Origin: an uncultured Pelagibacteraceae bacterium
GTDB lineage: Bacteria > Pseudomonadota > Alphaproteobacteria > Pelagibacterales > Pelagibacteraceae
Direction: 5' to 3'
Length of the DNA stretch: 64,000 bases
NCBI GenBank assembly: GCA_902601545.1
Contig: CACKNR010000004.1
Coordinates: forward strand, 552-64,551
Positions 18,681-60,823 of the stretch are shown here, one piece after another (positions within the stretch are counted from its first letter, which is position 1; each line of letters begins with the position of its first letter). The notes under the pieces were generated by a model that was not told the origin of the DNA, made no database searches, and saw only the letters and a program-made list of their open reading frames with translations. Made by a program: the position numbers and the translations under genes.

Positions 18681-21254
18681 ATGGAAAAAAATATTGTAGA
18701 AAAAAATAAATCTTTTAAACCAATATTTGTTCAAGATGAAATGAGCTCATCTTATCTTTCTTATGCGATGAGCGTCATTGTTAGTAGAGCTCTTCCCGAT
18801 GTAAGAGATGGATTAAAGCCTGTTCATAGAAGAATAATTTATGCGATGTATAAAGGCGGTTATGACTGGTCAAAACCTTTTAGAAAATCTGCAAGAATTG
18901 TTGGAGATGTAATTGGTAAATATCATCCTCATGGAGATCAATCTGTTTATGATGCTTTAGTAAGATTAGTACAAGATTTTTCTATGAGTGTTCCATTAAT
19001 CTCTGGGCAAGGAAATTTTGGATCAATAGATGGCGATCCACCTGCAGCAATGAGATATACTGAGACAAAATTAGGTAGAATTGCTCAATTTTTAACTGAG
19101 GACTTAGAAAAAAATACAGTTACTTTTAGAAGTAATTACGATGAAACAGAAAAAGAGCCAGAAGTTCTTCCCTCACAGTACCCTAATATTTTAGTAAATG
19201 GAGCTGGTGGTATTGCGGTGGGTATGGCAACAAGCATACCTCCACATAATTTAGGTGAAATAATCAATGCTACTATCGCTTTAATAAATAATAAAGAGAT
19301 TACAATTAGTCAGTTGATGAAACATGTTCCTGGACCAGATTTTCCTACCGGTGGAGTAATAATCGGTAAAGATATCATTAAGCAAGGTTATAATAAAGGT
19401 AGAGGTTCATTTAAAATAAGAGGTGAAATTGAATTTGAAGAAAAAAAAGGTGGAAGAGACATATTGGTAATAAAATCTATACCTTACCAAGTTAATAAAT
19501 CAATTTTGATTGAAAAAATAGCTCAGCTAGTAAGAGATAAAAAAATTGAAGGGATAAGAGATTTAAGGGATGAGTCCAATCGTGAAGGAATAAGAGTAGT
19601 AATAGAATTAAGAAAGGGCGTAGAACCAGAAACAATCAGAAGACAACTTTATAAATTAACAAATATAGAAAGTTCTTTTGGATTTAATACTTTGGCTATT
19701 GTAAATAATAAACCTAAAATTTTAAACTTAAAGGAATTTATTTCTGAGTTTTTAAAATTTAGAGAAACTACAGTTCTCAAAAGAGTAAAGTTTGATTTAC
19801 ATAAAGCAGAAGAAAAAGCTCATATTCTTATAGGTCTTGCTACTGCCGTAGAAAATATTGATGAAATTATTAAGATTATAAAAAATTCTAAAAATACTGA
19901 AAACGCTAAAAAAAATCTACTTTCAAAAAAATGGAAAGTTAAAAAGAGTTTGAAAATGATTAGTTTAATTGAAAAGAAAAAAACAGTTTCAAATTATCAA
20001 CTTTCAAATCTGCAAGTAGATGCAATTTTAGAATTAAGGCTACAAAAACTTACTGCCTTCGGAATAAGCGAAATAGAGACTGAGATTTCAAAACTTTCAA
20101 AATTGATAATTGATTATAATAAAATACTTAATTCAAAAAAAGCCCTTTATGGTTTGATTATAGATGAGCTTGAAAAGATAAAAGATAAATTTTCATCTCC
20201 AAGGAAAACAAAAATTATAGATGCAGTTTTAAATTATAATATTGAAGAAACAATTCAAAAAGAGTCAGTTGTAATAAATATTACAAATCAAGGTTACATT
20301 AAAAGAGGCCCTTTAAGTTCATTAAAAGCCCAAAAAAGGGGAGGGAAAGGTAGAACAGGTATTTCTACAAGAGAGGATGATTTCGTTGTTCAAATTTTTA
20401 CAGCTAACACTCATACACCTGTCTTATTTTTTTCAACACAGGGACTTGTTTATAAAATTAAAGCTCATAAAATTCCTGAAGGGACAACAGCTTCAAAAGG
20501 GAAATCAATATTTAATATTTTACCTTTAAAAAGCCATCACTCTATAAGCTCTATAATGCCTCTGCCGGAAGATGAAACTGAGTGGAAAAATCTTATGATT
20601 ATATTTGCTACTTCCAAAGGCAATGTTAGAAAAAACACTTTAGAAGACTTCGTTAATATAAATAACAGCGGAAAGATCGCAATGAAATTGGATCAAGATG
20701 ATAAGATAATTGGTGTTAAAATATGTAAAGATGATCAAGATATTTTATTGAGTACACAATTTGGTAAATGTATAAGATTTAAATCTAAAAAATTAAGATT
20801 ATTTAAAGGTAGATCATCTAAAGGAATAAAAGGAATTGAACTTAAAGAAAAAGACAAAGTAATTTCTTTATCAATAATAGATAATACTCAAATTGATACA
20901 AAAACTTTAAATAATGAAAAGAAAATTAAAGATGCTGTTGACAGATTTATATTATCTGTTTCAGAAAATGGCTACGGCAAAAGATCATCTTATAGAGATT
21001 ATAGGGTAACAAACCGAGGTGGAAAAGGAATTATAGGAATAATAAACTCACCAAGAAACGGAAATATCGCCTCTTCACTTATTGTGACCGAAGATGATGA
21101 GATACTATTATCAACTGACAAAGGCAGTATAATGAGATGCGCTGTTAAAGAAATAAGAATAGCTGGAAGAAATACTCAAGGTGTGAGAATAAAAAAATTA
21201 TCGGGATCAGAAAAAGTTGTTTCAGTAATTAAGATTGAGGATAACATAAATTAG
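18681..21254 (+). CDS. gyrA: DNA gyrase subunit A
   Basis: [22 protein letters not shown], GyrA box QKRGGKG. Confidence 0.98.
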
Positions 21255-37361: not shown

Positions 37362-37646
37362 ATGAAAAAAGCTAAAATTTATATTCCTGCTAAAACTGCG
37401 ATGCAATCGGGCAGGGGTAAACTTAAAAATTGGGTATTAGAATTTATAACTAAAGATCCCTCAATAAATCCTTTAATGGGGTGGGAAACATCGACGGATA
37501 CCCTTGAAGAAGTTGTTCTAAAGTTTCCATCAAAAGAAAAAGCTATAGAATATGCTGAAAAAAATAATATATCTTATAATGTTATTGAACCTAACAAGAA
37601 AGAATTTGTTATAAAATCATACGCAGATAATTTTCTTAAGGATTAA
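37362..37646 (+). CDS. Complex I accessory subunit (NDUFS4-like)
   Basis: KIYIPAKTAMQSG, PLMGW, SYADNF. Confidence 0.93.
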   Translation: MKKAKIYIPAKTAMQSGRGKLKNWVLEFITKDPSINPLMGWETSTDTLEEVVLKFPSKEKAIEYAEKNNISYNVIEPNKKEFVIKSYADNFLKD

Positions 37647-37648
37647 AT

Positions 37649-38656
37649 ATGTGGAGAAGTTTTTTTAGAGATAAAAAATGGTTTTATTGGTCCTACGGAG
37701 GAGGTTTTTTTATTATTTCTTTGCTAGTGATGCAAACCTATTTAGATGTTCTATTTAATAGTTGGTACAAGGATTTTTATGATATTCTCCAAACAGCCGA
37801 GAAACGTGAGATATCAGAGTTTTGGGATTCAATAAAAAGGTTTTTATATATAGCATTGCCATACGTCACACTTTTTGCCTTCACTAATTGGTTCACAAGG
37901 TTATGGGCATTTAGATGGAGAGAGGCAATGACGTTTTCCTATATGCCATATTGGAGAGCTACTGAAGCAAAAGTAGAGGGTTCATCTCAAAGAATTCAAG
38001 AAGACTGTATGAATTTTGCAAAAATTGTTGAATCAATTGGATTGCAGGTTGTTAAGGCTATTATGACATTAATAGCGTTTATTCCTATTTTATGGGTTCT
38101 TTCTTCAAATGTTAATGTTCCTTTTTTAAACAATATATCTGGATCTCTAGTGTGGGTAGCACTTACACTCAGTTTAGGTGGGATACTTATTAGTTGGTTG
38201 GTTGGAATAAAATTACCTGGTCTTGAATATAACAATCAGAAAGTTGAAGCAGCATTTAGGAAAGAATTAGTCTACGGAGAAGATGATAGAAAAAATTACG
38301 TTCAAGCTCCTACAATTTTACAATTGTTCACTGGTATAAGATTCAATTATCATAAACTATTTTTACATTACGGATATTTTGATTTATGGGCCATATGGTA
38401 CAGACAATTATTTGTTATTGTTCCATTTCTTATAATGGCACCAGGTTTGTTTACTGCAGCGTTCACTTTGGGTGTAATGATGCAAGTTGTAAATGCATTT
38501 GGTGAAGTTAAAGACGCTTTTTCTGTATTTTTGTATAATTGGACAAGAATTACAGAACTAAGATCAATACATAAGCGATTAATGGAGTTCGAAACAGCAA
38601 TTAATTATGACACTAATAAGTTGAGAAAGCCTCGAAAATCTGATGTAAGAGTTTAA
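37649..38656 (+). CDS. SbmA/BacA-family transporter
   Basis: FRWREAM, EGSSQRIQED, LPGLEYNNQKVEAAFRKELV. Confidence 0.9.
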   Translation: MWRSFFRDKKWFYWSYGGGFFIISLLVMQTYLDVLFNSWYKDFYDILQTAEKREISEFWDSIKRFLYIALPYVTLFAFTNWFTRLWAFRWREAMTFSYMPYWRATEAKVEGSSQRIQEDCMNFAKIVESIGLQVVKAIMTLIAFIPILWVLSSNVNVPFLNNISGSLVWVALTLSLGGILISWLVGIKLPGLEYNNQKVEAAFRKELVYGEDDRKNYVQAPTILQLFTGIRFNYHKLFLHYGYFDLWAIWYRQLFVIVPFLIMAPGLFTAAFTLGVMMQVVNAFGEVKDAFSVFLYNWTRITELRSIHKRLMEFETAINYDTNKLRKPRKSDVRV

Positions 38657-39553
38657 TGGAACTCTATATCAAACTGATAGACGTCATACTTCCAGTATTT
38701 TTTGTAATTGGTATAGGCTATTACCTTGGAAAAAAAGATCCAAATTTTAACACCGATTTTATAACCACCTTGGCTGGCAATGTGGGTACACCTGCAATGA
38801 TTTTTTACACTATTACTTCTACAGGTGTAACTTTAGAAACATTTATAGAATATTTTACATATGCTTTAATAATAATAGGCGGGTTTGCTGTAGTAGGATT
38901 GATTGTTCTTGCTTTAATGAAAAAAGACTTTGTAAGCGAACTTCCTCCATTAATTTTACCAAATACTGGTAATATGGGTATACCTATTTGTTTATTTGCC
39001 TATGGTACAGAGGGTTTAGGTGTAGCCTCAGCTATAGCATCAGTAATTATCTTGCTTCACTTCACATTAGGAGTACTTTTAGCAAAAAAAAAGTTTTTCA
39101 CTGAAAATATTAATTACTAATATGCCTATTTACGGGATAATAACAGCTGTGATTGTTTTATATTATGATTGGGAGGTCCCTGGTTTTGTAGTTAATACCA
39201 CGTTTTTATTAACCTACGCTACAATATTTCTGGTTCTTATGTCCTTAGGAATCGCATTAACAAAATTAAAAGTAGTATCATGGTTGAATGCATCCATTTT
39301 AAGCGGCGTAAGAATTATAATTGGTCCCTTGATTGGATTTGGTTTAATTAAATATTTAAACCTTACTGGATTAGCTGCTGGAGTGCTTTTAATTCAGTCT
39401 GCTATGCCAAGTGCTATATTAACTTATTTAGTGGGCTCTATGTATTCAGAGAAAAGGGTAGTCGATAGTATTGCCAGCGTTATAGTTACTTCCACACTAA
39501 TGTCATTTATCACTATCCCAATTGTTGTCTATTTAAGTCTTAAATATTTCTAA
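38656..39553 (+). pseudogene. AEC (auxin efflux carrier) family transporter split by a one-base frameshift in an A9 run
   Basis: ORFs 38656-39120 and 39122-39553 join (..LAKKSFSLKILITNMPIYG..) if one A of 39084-39092 is removed; PNTGNMGIP and QSAMPSA motifs. Confidence 0.8.
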
Positions 39554-39967: not shown

Positions 39968-40243
39968 CTAGAGCTTTATGCCCTCTTTTTTTAGCAGAAA
40001 TCTCTTAGTTTTTATACCTCCTCTGCCTGAATAGCCGCCGAGCGATCCGTCAGATCTTATTACTCTATGACAAGGTATTTTGGGCGCATGGGGGTTTTTT
40101 CCTATAGCATTAGCTACAGCACGTGCAGCAAACGGTTTTCCTATTGCTTTTGCTACTTGAGAGTAGGTTTTAACTCTTCCACGGGGTATTTTCCTTAAAT
40201 AAGCCCATACTTTAAGCTGAAATTTAGTACCTGTTAGCCTCAT
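39968..40243 (-). CDS. ogt: Minimal O6-methylguanine-DNA methyltransferase (C-terminal domain only)
   Basis: FQLKVW, IPRGRVKTY, ARAVANA, active-site PCHRV, GGYSG. Confidence 0.9.
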   Translation of the reverse strand: MRLTGTKFQLKVWAYLRKIPRGRVKTYSQVAKAIGKPFAARAVANAIGKNPHAPKIPCHRVIRSDGSLGGYSGRGGIKTKRFLLKKEGIKL

Positions 40244-40426: not shown

Positions 40427-40455
40427 TTGACATCTAAAATCACTTAATATATTAC
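40427..40455 (+). promoter_or_regulatory. Probable sigma70 promoter of the recombinase
   Basis: Perfect TTGACA at 40427-40432; TATATT/TATTAC -10 candidates at 40448-40455. Confidence 0.5.
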
Positions 40456-40487
40456 TAATGATAATTAATTGTTATCAATAGTAATAT
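40449..40487. repeat. lox-like inverted repeat, putative recombinase target: ATATTACTAATGATAA-TTAATTG-TTATCAATAGTAATAT
   Basis: 15/16 arm positions complementary, 7-bp asymmetric spacer; overlaps recombinase ATG. Confidence 0.75.
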
Positions 40488-41439
40488 GAATGAATTAGTT
40501 ACAGACTTAAAAAAGCTTCATGAAGATACTTTAAACAACCTAAAGTCATCTAAAGCTGATAACACTCTAAGAGCATATAAATCTGACTTTAAAGATTTTG
40601 AAGCATTCTGTGCAAAACATGGATTTAATTCTATTCCCTCAGAACCTAAGGTTGTATCATTATATCTTACACACCTTTCAGGAAACTCAAAATTAAGCAC
40701 TTTAAGACGTAGATTGGTGTCTATTGGAGTAGTTCATAAACTAAAGGGTCATTATTTAGATACAAAGCATCCAGTTATTATTGAAAATTTAATGGGTATA
40801 AAAAGAAAAAAAGGAAGCATGCAAATAGGCAAAAAACCTATATTAATCAATCACTTAAAACAAATAATTAATGTTATTGATGAAGAAAAAATAGAAAAAA
40901 TTAAAAAATTAAGAAATAGAACTTTAGTACTAATTGGATTTGGTGGAGGTTTTAGACGAACAGAGTTGATTTCTATTGATTGCGAAGACCTAGATTTTGT
41001 TGAGGAAGGTGTAAAAATTACTCTAAGAAGGTCCAAGACAGATCCATTTGGAGAAGGATTGGTAAAAGGAATACCCTACTTCGCTAATGAAAAATATTGT
41101 CCAGTTACAAGTTTAAAGAATTGGCTTAATTTATCTAAAATAAAAACTGGCCCGATATTTAGAAGATTTTCTAAAGGATCTATTCTTACTAATCATAGGT
41201 TAACAGATCAATCGGTAGTATTAATAATTAAAAATTCTTTAAAATTAGGCGGTGTAGAAAGTGAAAATTTTGCAGGTCATAGTTTGAGATCAGGTTTTGC
41301 TACGGTTGCAGCAGAGTCAGGCGCTGATGAGAGAAGCATTATGGCAATGACTGGCCACAAAACAACTCAAATGGTAAGACGATACATTAAGGAGGCAAAT
41401 ATATTTAAAAACAATGCTTTAAGTAAAATTAAACTTTAA
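40486..41439 (+). CDS. Cre-like tyrosine site-specific recombinase
   Basis: N-terminal SAM-like domain (ADNTLRAYKSD, STLRRRLVSI); catalytic R (FRRTEL), K (RSKTD), HSLR, TGH, Y (VRRY) all intact. Confidence 0.92.
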   Translation: MNELVTDLKKLHEDTLNNLKSSKADNTLRAYKSDFKDFEAFCAKHGFNSIPSEPKVVSLYLTHLSGNSKLSTLRRRLVSIGVVHKLKGHYLDTKHPVIIENLMGIKRKKGSMQIGKKPILINHLKQIINVIDEEKIEKIKKLRNRTLVLIGFGGGFRRTELISIDCEDLDFVEEGVKITLRRSKTDPFGEGLVKGIPYFANEKYCPVTSLKNWLNLSKIKTGPIFRRFSKGSILTNHRLTDQSVVLIIKNSLKLGGVESENFAGHSLRSGFATVAAESGADERSIMAMTGHKTTQMVRRYIKEANIFKNNALSKIKL

Positions 41440-59885: not shown

Positions 59886-60823
59886 TTATTGTATATATTT
59901 CTAATTATTTTGTTAATCTTTTTACTTTTATGCAATGCAAAAGTTGTAACCTCAAATTCATTTCCGAGGTCCTTTACTCCCTTAGTTAAATCTCCATCTG
60001 TTACACCAGTAGCACAAAATATAACATCTCCTTTTACCATATCTTCGATATTATATTTCTTTTTAAAATCAGATATCCCAAGTTTTTTTGCCCTAATCTT
60101 TTCTTCTTCATTTAAAACTAAACGACCTTGGATTTGACCTCCAAAGCAAGATAGCGCTGATGCTGCTAAAACTCCTTCTGGGCCTCCACCTGTGCTGTAG
60201 TAAATATCATTTTTAGGTTTGTCTCCTATTACACTCAAAACACCAGCTATATCACCATCTGTTATAAAATTTATAGTTACCCCTAGCTTGTTCATTACAT
60301 CAACGATTTCATCATGTCTTGGTCTTTTCATTACACATGCATTTATTTCTGTTACCTTTTTCTTTTTTGCTTCAGCTAGTATTTGAATATTTTTTTCTAC
60401 TCCATTATCAATATCTATTAAATTTTTAGGTAAATTTGATCCTATTGCTATTTTTTCCATGTAAGTGTCAGGAGCTGATAATAAATCACCTTTTTTTGCA
60501 ACTGCTATAACAGAGAAAGCGTTAGGTTGATTGTTAGCTGTGAATTTTGTTCCCTCCAATGGATCCACTGCTATGTCAAATTTAGGTCCATTTAACGTTC
60601 CTAATCTTTCGCCAATGTACAACATGGGAGCCTCATCCATTTCCCCTTCCCCGATAACTATTGTTCCTTCCATATTAATTTTGTTTAACTCTCTTCTCAT
60701 TGGATCAACAGCACCTTTATCAGCAGCAATTTTATCATTTTTACCTATAAACCTTGAGGCTCCAATTGCTGCCTTTTCGGTGGCTTTAATGAATAGATTT
60801 AAAAATTTTTGATCTATTGACAT
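59882..60823 (-). CDS. glpX: Class II fructose-1,6-bisphosphatase
   Basis: IGEGEMDEAPML, DIAVDPLEGT, GGGPEGVL, ATGVTDG. Confidence 0.96.
   Translation of the reverse strand: MSIDQKFLNLFIKATEKAAIGASRFIGKNDKIAADKGAVDPMRRELNKINMEGTIVIGEGEMDEAPMLYIGERLGTLNGPKFDIAVDPLEGTKFTANNQPNAFSVIAVAKKGDLLSAPDTYMEKIAIGSNLPKNLIDIDNGVEKNIQILAEAKKKKVTEINACVMKRPRHDEIVDVMNKLGVTINFITDGDIAGVLSVIGDKPKNDIYYSTGGGPEGVLAASALSCFGGQIQGRLVLNEEEKIRAKKLGISDFKKKYNIEDMVKGDVIFCATGVTDGDLTKGVKDLGNEFEVTTFALHKSKKINKIIRNIYNK

Follow-up and report, generated by a model that had tools for sequence, protein, structure and literature searches.

A Cre-like recombinase and its adjoining palindrome as a candidate substitute for XerCD/dif in SAR11 bacteria

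XerS/difSL of streptococci and lactococci and XerH/difH of Campylobacter and Helicobacter each consist of one recombinase encoded beside its own site at the terminus, where the pair replaces XerCD/dif (PMC5357621). An equivalent replacement has been engineered in E. coli, in which loxP and Cre take the place of dif and XerCD and need KOPS-guided FtsK to do so (PMC2680272). How SAR11 bacteria handle chromosome dimers was asked by Carnoy and Roten, who listed P. ubique without dif or Xer, entered "absence of dif-related sequence" for HTCC1062 in their supplement and noted in the article that evidence for loxP/Cre-like substitutes in nature was lacking (PMC2731167). The literature that we searched, which covered few subscription papers, held no report of a Cre-like module in SAR11.

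We analyzed a 64,000-nucleotide stretch of DNA (the window) from an uncultured member of the Pelagibacteraceae (G000; contig C4), in which a tyrosine recombinase gene is preceded by a lox/dif-like palindrome. A preliminary description of this DNA had proposed that such a pair replaces XerCD/dif. Comparative genomics supports that reading, and we put at roughly 80% the probability that recombinase and palindrome resolve SAR11 chromosome dimers in place of XerCD/dif.

The recombinase, its palindrome, and a putative promoter

The gene (40486..41439, + strand) encodes a 317-residue tyrosine recombinase of the Cre/TnpS-related plasmid-resolvase family, with the full R-K-H-R-H/W-Y catalytic set and an RSKTD motif (residues 182–186; 41029..41043, + strand) that contains the catalytic K184. 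In an alignment of 104 sequences, R157, K184, H265, R268, and Y300 are invariant and H291 is nearly so. Domain search, predicted model, and structure comparison all found no arm-binding domain. The preliminary description had spoken of an intact Cre-type enzyme with RSKTD and lacking that domain, and open reading frame, alignment, and model agree with it. The gene is under purifying selection, with dN/dS values of 0.06–0.13 in eight of ten pairwise comparisons, the remaining two having been dropped because they were out of register.

The enzyme is related to Cre and TnpS, is a strict member of neither group, and lies outside the Xer families. Its NCBIfam scores for XerD, XerC, and XerS are 67, 62, and 31 bits, with cut-offs of 330, 335, and 267, respectively, and a profile of 104 relatives gives Cre 130 bits, XerD 81, XerA 74, and XerH 32. 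The predicted model has a pLDDT of 96, and the closest solved structure is that of Cre (TM ~0.80, vs. 0.62 for XerH); a single-sequence fold with a pLDDT of 35 was set aside. By sequence, the pWW0 resolvase is closer than Cre, with 28–29% vs. 20.5% identity and 214 vs. 130 bits in the profile comparison. The label Cre-like, as first applied, therefore holds for structure, where Cre is the best solved match, but in sequence the nearest characterized relative is the TnpS-type resolvase of pWW0. Relatives are found on 852 plasmid records, being 34–44% identical among the 30 matches listed, and on one phage record, while the best 80 related loci all come from Pelagibacteraceae, Pelagibacterales, or Pelagibacter. 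Quick tree searches were run without bootstrap, and Cre and the pWW0 protein drew long-branch warnings; all 12 SAR11 proteins formed a single clade (99) that grouped with the plasmid relatives and apart from XerD. A 2026 preprint states, from automatic annotation, that both XerC and XerD are present in 15 Arctic Pelagibacterales genomes (10.64898/2026.10.07.757358), which counts against a replacement of XerCD, but annotators also call the SAR11 recombinase XerD.

Just ahead of the gene, the palindrome (40449..40487, + strand) reads ATATTACTAATGATAA-TTAATTG-TTATCAATAGTAATAT, with arms symmetric at 15 of 16 positions. In a search allowing a spacer of 4–10 bp and at most one mismatch, it was the joint-longest inverted repeat of the 844-kb assembly, and an arm of 16 bp was reached by 1 of 2,000 shuffles of the intergenic region. 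The preliminary description saw one copy of the site, and the site is single-copy in its source genome, where four exact GATAA-N7-TTATC cores occur and full arms accompany one of them. The runner-up arm pair in this genome, near position 33485 of contig C6, scores 22.5 vs. 31.4 and has an unrelated centre; it apparently lies within coding sequence and is probably due to chance.

Comparison with other genomes upheld the palindrome and trimmed it, since the conserved arms span about 13 bp and the outer 3 bp, which overlap the promoter and the start codon, vary. The conserved part (40452-40484) therefore has a 13-7-13 layout. The left arm TTACTAATGATAA (40452..40464) and the right arm TTATCAATAGTAA (40472..40484) are predicted half-sites for one monomer each, and the asymmetric 7-bp centre TTAATTG (40465..40471) is the predicted crossover region, all on the + strand. 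Given the positions at which loxP is cleaved, this centre corresponds to the loxP crossover region when the two sites are aligned in register with the half-site of the P1 record, and a 7-bp overlap is therefore predicted.

A palindrome lies upstream of the recombinase gene in 152 of 153 loci, as 61 distinct 39-mers, the family core being GATAA-TTAATKG-TTATC. Conservation reaches 100% in the inner arms, 97% in the centre, and 90–93% in the outer arms, and is 46% far upstream; the fixity of GATAA/TTATC comes partly from the search pattern, in which one mismatch was allowed and the centre and outer arms were left free. Among the 61 distinct sites, the centre is TTAATTG in 40, TTAATGG in 17, TTTATTG in 3, and TTAAAAG in 1. 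Arm positions ±11 covary in these sites (A:T in 53, T:A in 8), and TTCC/GGAA is swapped into both arms in divergent genera. The exact core was present in 43 of 45 single-contig genomes, once in 42 of them. A second core in G085 has no arms and was dismissed as a chance match, and the two site copies of G041 were traced to a duplicated contig with a 5.3-kb stretch that is 99% identical (L565/L566). The remaining two of the 45 genomes have full arms around the centres TTAAAGA (G065, L567:2874) and TTAATGA (G151, L568:2684). These two centres are also found in phage sites, and they may go back to an exchange with phage DNA or to drift alone. A search for a 17-nt core with two mismatches lacked specificity in AT-rich genomes, matching 200 of 201 (a tally that took in the unpublished G033 and G087) and controls as well, and was replaced by the exact degenerate core. 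Four sequencing runs at the locus, available as contigs only, yielded no convincing joint at the site.

We also looked upstream of more distant relatives of the gene. A GATAA-N6..8-TTATC core precedes the genes of three of four plasmid relatives and four of six other alphaproteobacterial relatives, with 6, 7, or 8 bp between GATAA and TTATC. Because plasmid and alphaproteobacterial relatives have the same core upstream, the site belongs to the enzyme.

The site also overlaps a putative promoter. The hexamer TTGACA (40427..40432, + strand) can be read as the −35 element of the recombinase gene and TATTAC (40450..40455, + strand), 17 nt past it and overlapping the outer left arm, as its −10 element. 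The distance from TTGAC to the core downstream is 33 nt in 145 of the 152 loci and 32–34 nt in every one, and the putative −10 therefore falls inside the left arm. The TTGACA/TATTAC pair was not called as a promoter by a sigma-70 consensus scanner, because TATTAC is missing the final T of the consensus. On the other side, the right arm shares its final 2 bp with the recombinase ATG. Since site and putative promoter overlap, conservation of the site could be operator-driven, a point to which we return below.

Distribution and position of the module

The recombinase gene was detected in 213 of 230 Pelagibacteraceae genomes (the tally took in the unpublished G087), and the 17 genomes without it are all fragmented, at about 20 contigs or more each. 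All 45 single-contig genomes, a set of published genomes only, have the gene, which is frameshifted in two (G078, L570; G103, L569). A frameshifted copy is also seen in G041, and these frameshifts may be true loss or assembly/long-read error. No XerC/D-grade gene was found in any of the 45 single-contig genomes, in which the best match to the XerD model is the Cre-like gene, at no more than 82 bits. In the 71.6%-complete G000 assembly, the recombinase is the sole PF00589 match. Likewise, no canonical dif with fewer than three mismatches turned up in 18 SAR11 terminus windows, and the searches for xerC, xerD, and dif thus came out as the preliminary description had anticipated. All 45 single-contig genomes have FtsK-gamma, and G000 has one copy.

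In the sister family f2, XerD-like genes scoring 308–326 bits, just below the cut-off, are present in 20 of 20 genomes, 18 of which have a second full Xer paralogue. The canonical dif pattern found a dif-like site in four of five f2 genomes. Neither the Cre-like gene nor the site core was found in any of the 20, and f2 is thus the mirror image of SAR11.

The module lies at the apparent replication terminus, as judged from skew, strand bias, and KOPS as proxies. The raw cumulative GC-skew maximum is at most 4.1 kb from the site in 18 of 18 genomes (windows of 100 kb centred on the site, and of 66 kb for G000), and 2.4 kb from it in a 400-kb window of G020. As a control, the same method landed 0.4–0.5 kb from canonical dif in two of two f2 genomes. 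Coding-strand bias drops from 0.75 to 0.20 across the site in G000, which is the flip in gene polarity noticed at the outset, and flips in all 18 genomes. Skew at fourfold-degenerate sites has no flip at the site, so raw skew mostly reflects gene orientation. With the gene in 213/230 genomes, the palindrome at 152/153 loci, and the skew maximum beside it in 18/18, the expected conservation of both at the apparent terminus is borne out.

Nearby KOPS, 27 in the 18 genomes, are all oriented toward the site. Within the window, KOPS-type octamers face it from the left at 20338..20345 (+ strand; C4 20889) and, nearest on that side, at 37409..37416 (+ strand; C4 37960), and from the right at 60644..60651 (− strand; C4 61195). 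Of the 27, 23 are on the sense strand of genes, and control motifs are 60–82% oriented; three antisense and one intergenic KOPS likewise point at the site. Genome-wide, 122 of 146 KOPS in ten complete genomes point toward the site, as do 13 of 13 within 25 kb, where their density is about twice the expectation (13 vs. 5.7). The site is the best possible KOPS split in seven of these ten genomes, and another split is better in three. Flanking genes change or invert between genera while the module stays put, those of G000 being inverted relative to most.

The immediate neighbors of the recombinase are housekeeping genes. Divergent from it is a 91-aa ORF (39968-40243, − strand) that matches only PF01035 (O6-methylguanine methyltransferase DNA-binding domain), an adjacency that varies between genera. 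An AEC-type transport gene is split into ORFs of 154 aa (38656-39120) and 143 aa (39122-39553), both on the + strand, the second of which matches PF03547 positions 205-341 of 343; the split is likely a frameshift or an assembly error. Directly downstream of the recombinase gene or close to its 3′ end, G047, G054, G070, G082, and G091 have clusters of genome-specific ORFs, which suggests variability at this spot of the terminus, with no second site present.

Related modules in a second family and sites in pelagiphages

We wondered whether related genes occur elsewhere. Among 297 other alphaproteobacteria sampled, six have a relative that is 36–39% identical, and four of the five relative-bearing genomes checked also have Xer-grade genes, the exception being G414. 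In the family of G414 (f145, streamlined, 0.9–1.6 Mb), a relative of 317–352 aa is present in 36 of 46 genomes, and an XerD-grade match in none of the 46. A GATAA-N6/7-TTATC site precedes the gene in 27 of 30 f145 loci, with a 6-bp centre in 26. On the contig of the gene, 26 of 27 KOPS point at it (six genomes, with both sides represented in only two); the skew of G414 is weak, with a maximum 8.9 kb off and near the contig end. Family f145 thus repeats the SAR11 pattern, i.e., a Cre-like gene and site with no XerD-grade gene. The trees point to no particular donor, and they favour neither one shared origin of the SAR11 and f145 genes nor two separate ones.

A scan of viral sequences for the host arms around any 7-bp centre returned 26 contigs, 23 of which have terL in the locus and none of which has a recombinase gene there. 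In two sets of terL-selected loci, an arm pair lies no more than 700 bp upstream in 30 of 62 and 38 of 65, fractions that are biased upward because loci were dropped as too short or duplicate (18 and 15, respectively) and both queries came from site-bearing phages. Arm pairs number 80 in 88.9 kb upstream of terL vs. 7 in 849 kb elsewhere. Their centres are 7, 8, or 6 bp long in 53, 16, and 11 pairs and mostly differ from the host centre, although TTAATTG itself is found in a few phages, and at least two sites are present in 12 phage loci. The phage palindromes are found 330–670 bp upstream of terL (HTVC010P- and HTVC106P-type), sometimes in tandem about 30 bp apart. In 12 cultured HTVC010P-/HTVC106P-type records, a pair scoring at least 15 lies upstream of terL in nine, and HTVC010P and HTVC034P have a strong half-site. 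The sole integrase-bearing phage of these 12 records, HTVC028P, has no site. HTVC023P, HTVC027P, and two relatives have none either; uncultured phages with an HTVC023P-like terL (e.g., L353 and L378) do carry it. Two non-SAR11 control phages have no site upstream of terL. Small viral contigs considered as integrase-free plasmids or satellites turned out, from their terS, terL, and portal genes, to be pieces of tailed phages.

HTVC106P-like phages have the site between terS and a small ORF, with terL next; in the P1 record, pac lies in pacA and is followed by pacB and then by lox, about 4 kb from pac. Subgroup I is described as integrase-free and strictly lytic by Du et al., in whose text the word dif is absent (PMC8477408). 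We infer that these phages may have the host enzyme act at two copies of the phage site, so as to circularize or resolve their genomes; the alternative is that the phage site is an operator. A broader proposal can be offered only tentatively, and taken as a whole we find it somewhat doubtful: that two streamlined marine alphaproteobacterial families naturally made the swap engineered in E. coli, with a plasmid-derived Cre/TnpS-family enzyme and a lox-like site, and, in addition, that the most abundant pelagiphages, which are described as integrase-free, borrow the host enzyme via a site of their own beside the packaging genes, for circularization or resolution as in P1/loxP but with no recombinase gene of their own.

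Alternative explanations and comparison with known systems

For the SAR11 chromosome, we infer the following scheme. Each 13-bp arm would be occupied by a single recombinase monomer. At the septum, FtsK guided by KOPS would pair the two sister sites that a dimer carries, and a homotetramer would exchange strands across the asymmetric 7-bp centre, whereby chromosome monomers would be released. The enzyme would act as its own repressor as well, given that the putative −10 and the transcription start lie within the site. As for origin, a plasmid or transposon resolvase is the likely source of the module, and xerC, xerD, and dif would have been lost.

The palindrome could instead be an operator only, used in autorepression of the recombinase or bound by a regulator such as Fur, in which case the enzyme would have its targets elsewhere or in incoming DNA and its place at the terminus would be a matter of history. 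The way in which the site covers the putative −10 and the gene start, at a fixed distance from TTGACA, fits this explanation, as do the resolvases that repress their own genes via res sites (PMC7157771) and the phage copies in promoter-like intergenic regions, whose centres are free. Yet the spacer of an operator needs no conserved asymmetric centre, and that of the SAR11 site is 97% conserved. There is also no regulon, since one of the four exact cores in G000 is fully armed and background arm pairs amount to two in 1.77 Mb, which rules out a Fur box or a global regulator. Moreover, the module has kept its place at the point of convergence despite rearrangements, and in two families it occurs to the exclusion of XerCD; we consider an operator-only role unlikely.

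It is quite unlikely, too, that the pair is primarily an integration platform for mobile DNA or phages at the terminus, with dimer resolution secondary or absent. That the closest relatives are plasmid-borne, on 852 plasmid records, that phages carry the arms and a few of them the host centre TTAATTG, that genome-specific ORFs often lie downstream of the gene, and that two hosts have phage-like centres would all be compatible with integration. However, no element was found between two sites, the exact core is single in 42 of 45 genomes, most phage centres are unlike that of the host, and the loss of XerCD would be left unexplained. The least probable possibility, in our view a very unlikely one, is that the locus is not the terminus at all, strand convergence and KOPS polarity having other causes and the gene being a plasmid resolvase that was kept for an unrelated housekeeping function. 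Although the fourfold-degenerate skew does not flip and coding-strand bias partly explains KOPS polarity, the same measures locate canonical dif in f2, the antisense and intergenic KOPS also face the site, and KOPS density near it is above expectation (13 vs. 5.7 within 25 kb). Resolution of chromosome dimers by the recombinase at its palindrome is thus the reading that we prefer.

If true, dimer resolution by a single enzyme would have arisen independently once more, here from a lineage of plasmid/transposon resolvases, and this would concern the ocean's most abundant bacteria plus a second family. With a named enzyme and a 33-bp site, the dimer question becomes directly testable in E. coli, and the phage copies suggest that viruses abundant worldwide interact with their hosts in a way so far unrecognized. 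Candidate tools can also be drawn from the enzyme family. The mining of Cre-type enzymes by Jelicic et al., in which 8 of 17 predicted pairs were active, applied an 8-bp-spacer filter (PMC10250229), and centres of 6–8 bp fall partly outside it. No Pelagibacter row is present in the text and one supplement of that study or in the supplements of Kono et al. that we searched (PMC3025954), and Cre is left out of the classification set out in 10.1101/542381.

When set beside the systems described so far, the SAR11 module resembles XerS/difSL and XerH/difH in that a lone recombinase adjoins its own site and XerCD is absent. The enzyme is of an unrelated lineage (31 bits for XerS, with a cut-off of 267, and 32 bits for XerH) and has 317 aa rather than ~356, and the site differs as well. 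With Cre/loxP it shares 13-bp arms, an asymmetric centre, and a site just upstream of the gene. Its arm equals the loxP half-site at 8 of 13 positions, compared by eye, and that of a Skermanella plasmid relative does so at 11 of 13. In contrast to Cre, to which the enzyme is 20.5% identical, the SAR11 module is natural, chromosomal, core, and single-copy, and its site is 13-7-13 and not 13-8-13 as in loxP; in loxP register it becomes 12-9-12, with a centre one base longer.

The pWW0 (Tn4651) resolvase has an upstream repeat with an ATAA-N7-TTAT core, like the SAR11 site. Its record names a "site-specific integrase," which we take to be TnpS, divergent from a gene for a 332-aa DNA-binding protein. 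The published TnpS/TnpT/rst layout fits this record (PMC7157771). No homologue of the divergent 332-aa (TnpT-type) helper was found in the 71.6%-complete G000 or among the ORFs of 18 terminus windows. TnpS/TnpT/rst is part of a Tn3-family transposon and patchy, whereas the SAR11 gene is a core single-copy gene among housekeeping neighbors. Finally, terminus position and KOPS convergence, as judged by proxy measures in SAR11, and the presence of FtsK-gamma are shared with XerC/XerD/dif. Unlike that system, SAR11 has one gene and symmetric arms in place of two paralogues and a 28-bp 11-6-11 site with distinct XerC and XerD arms.
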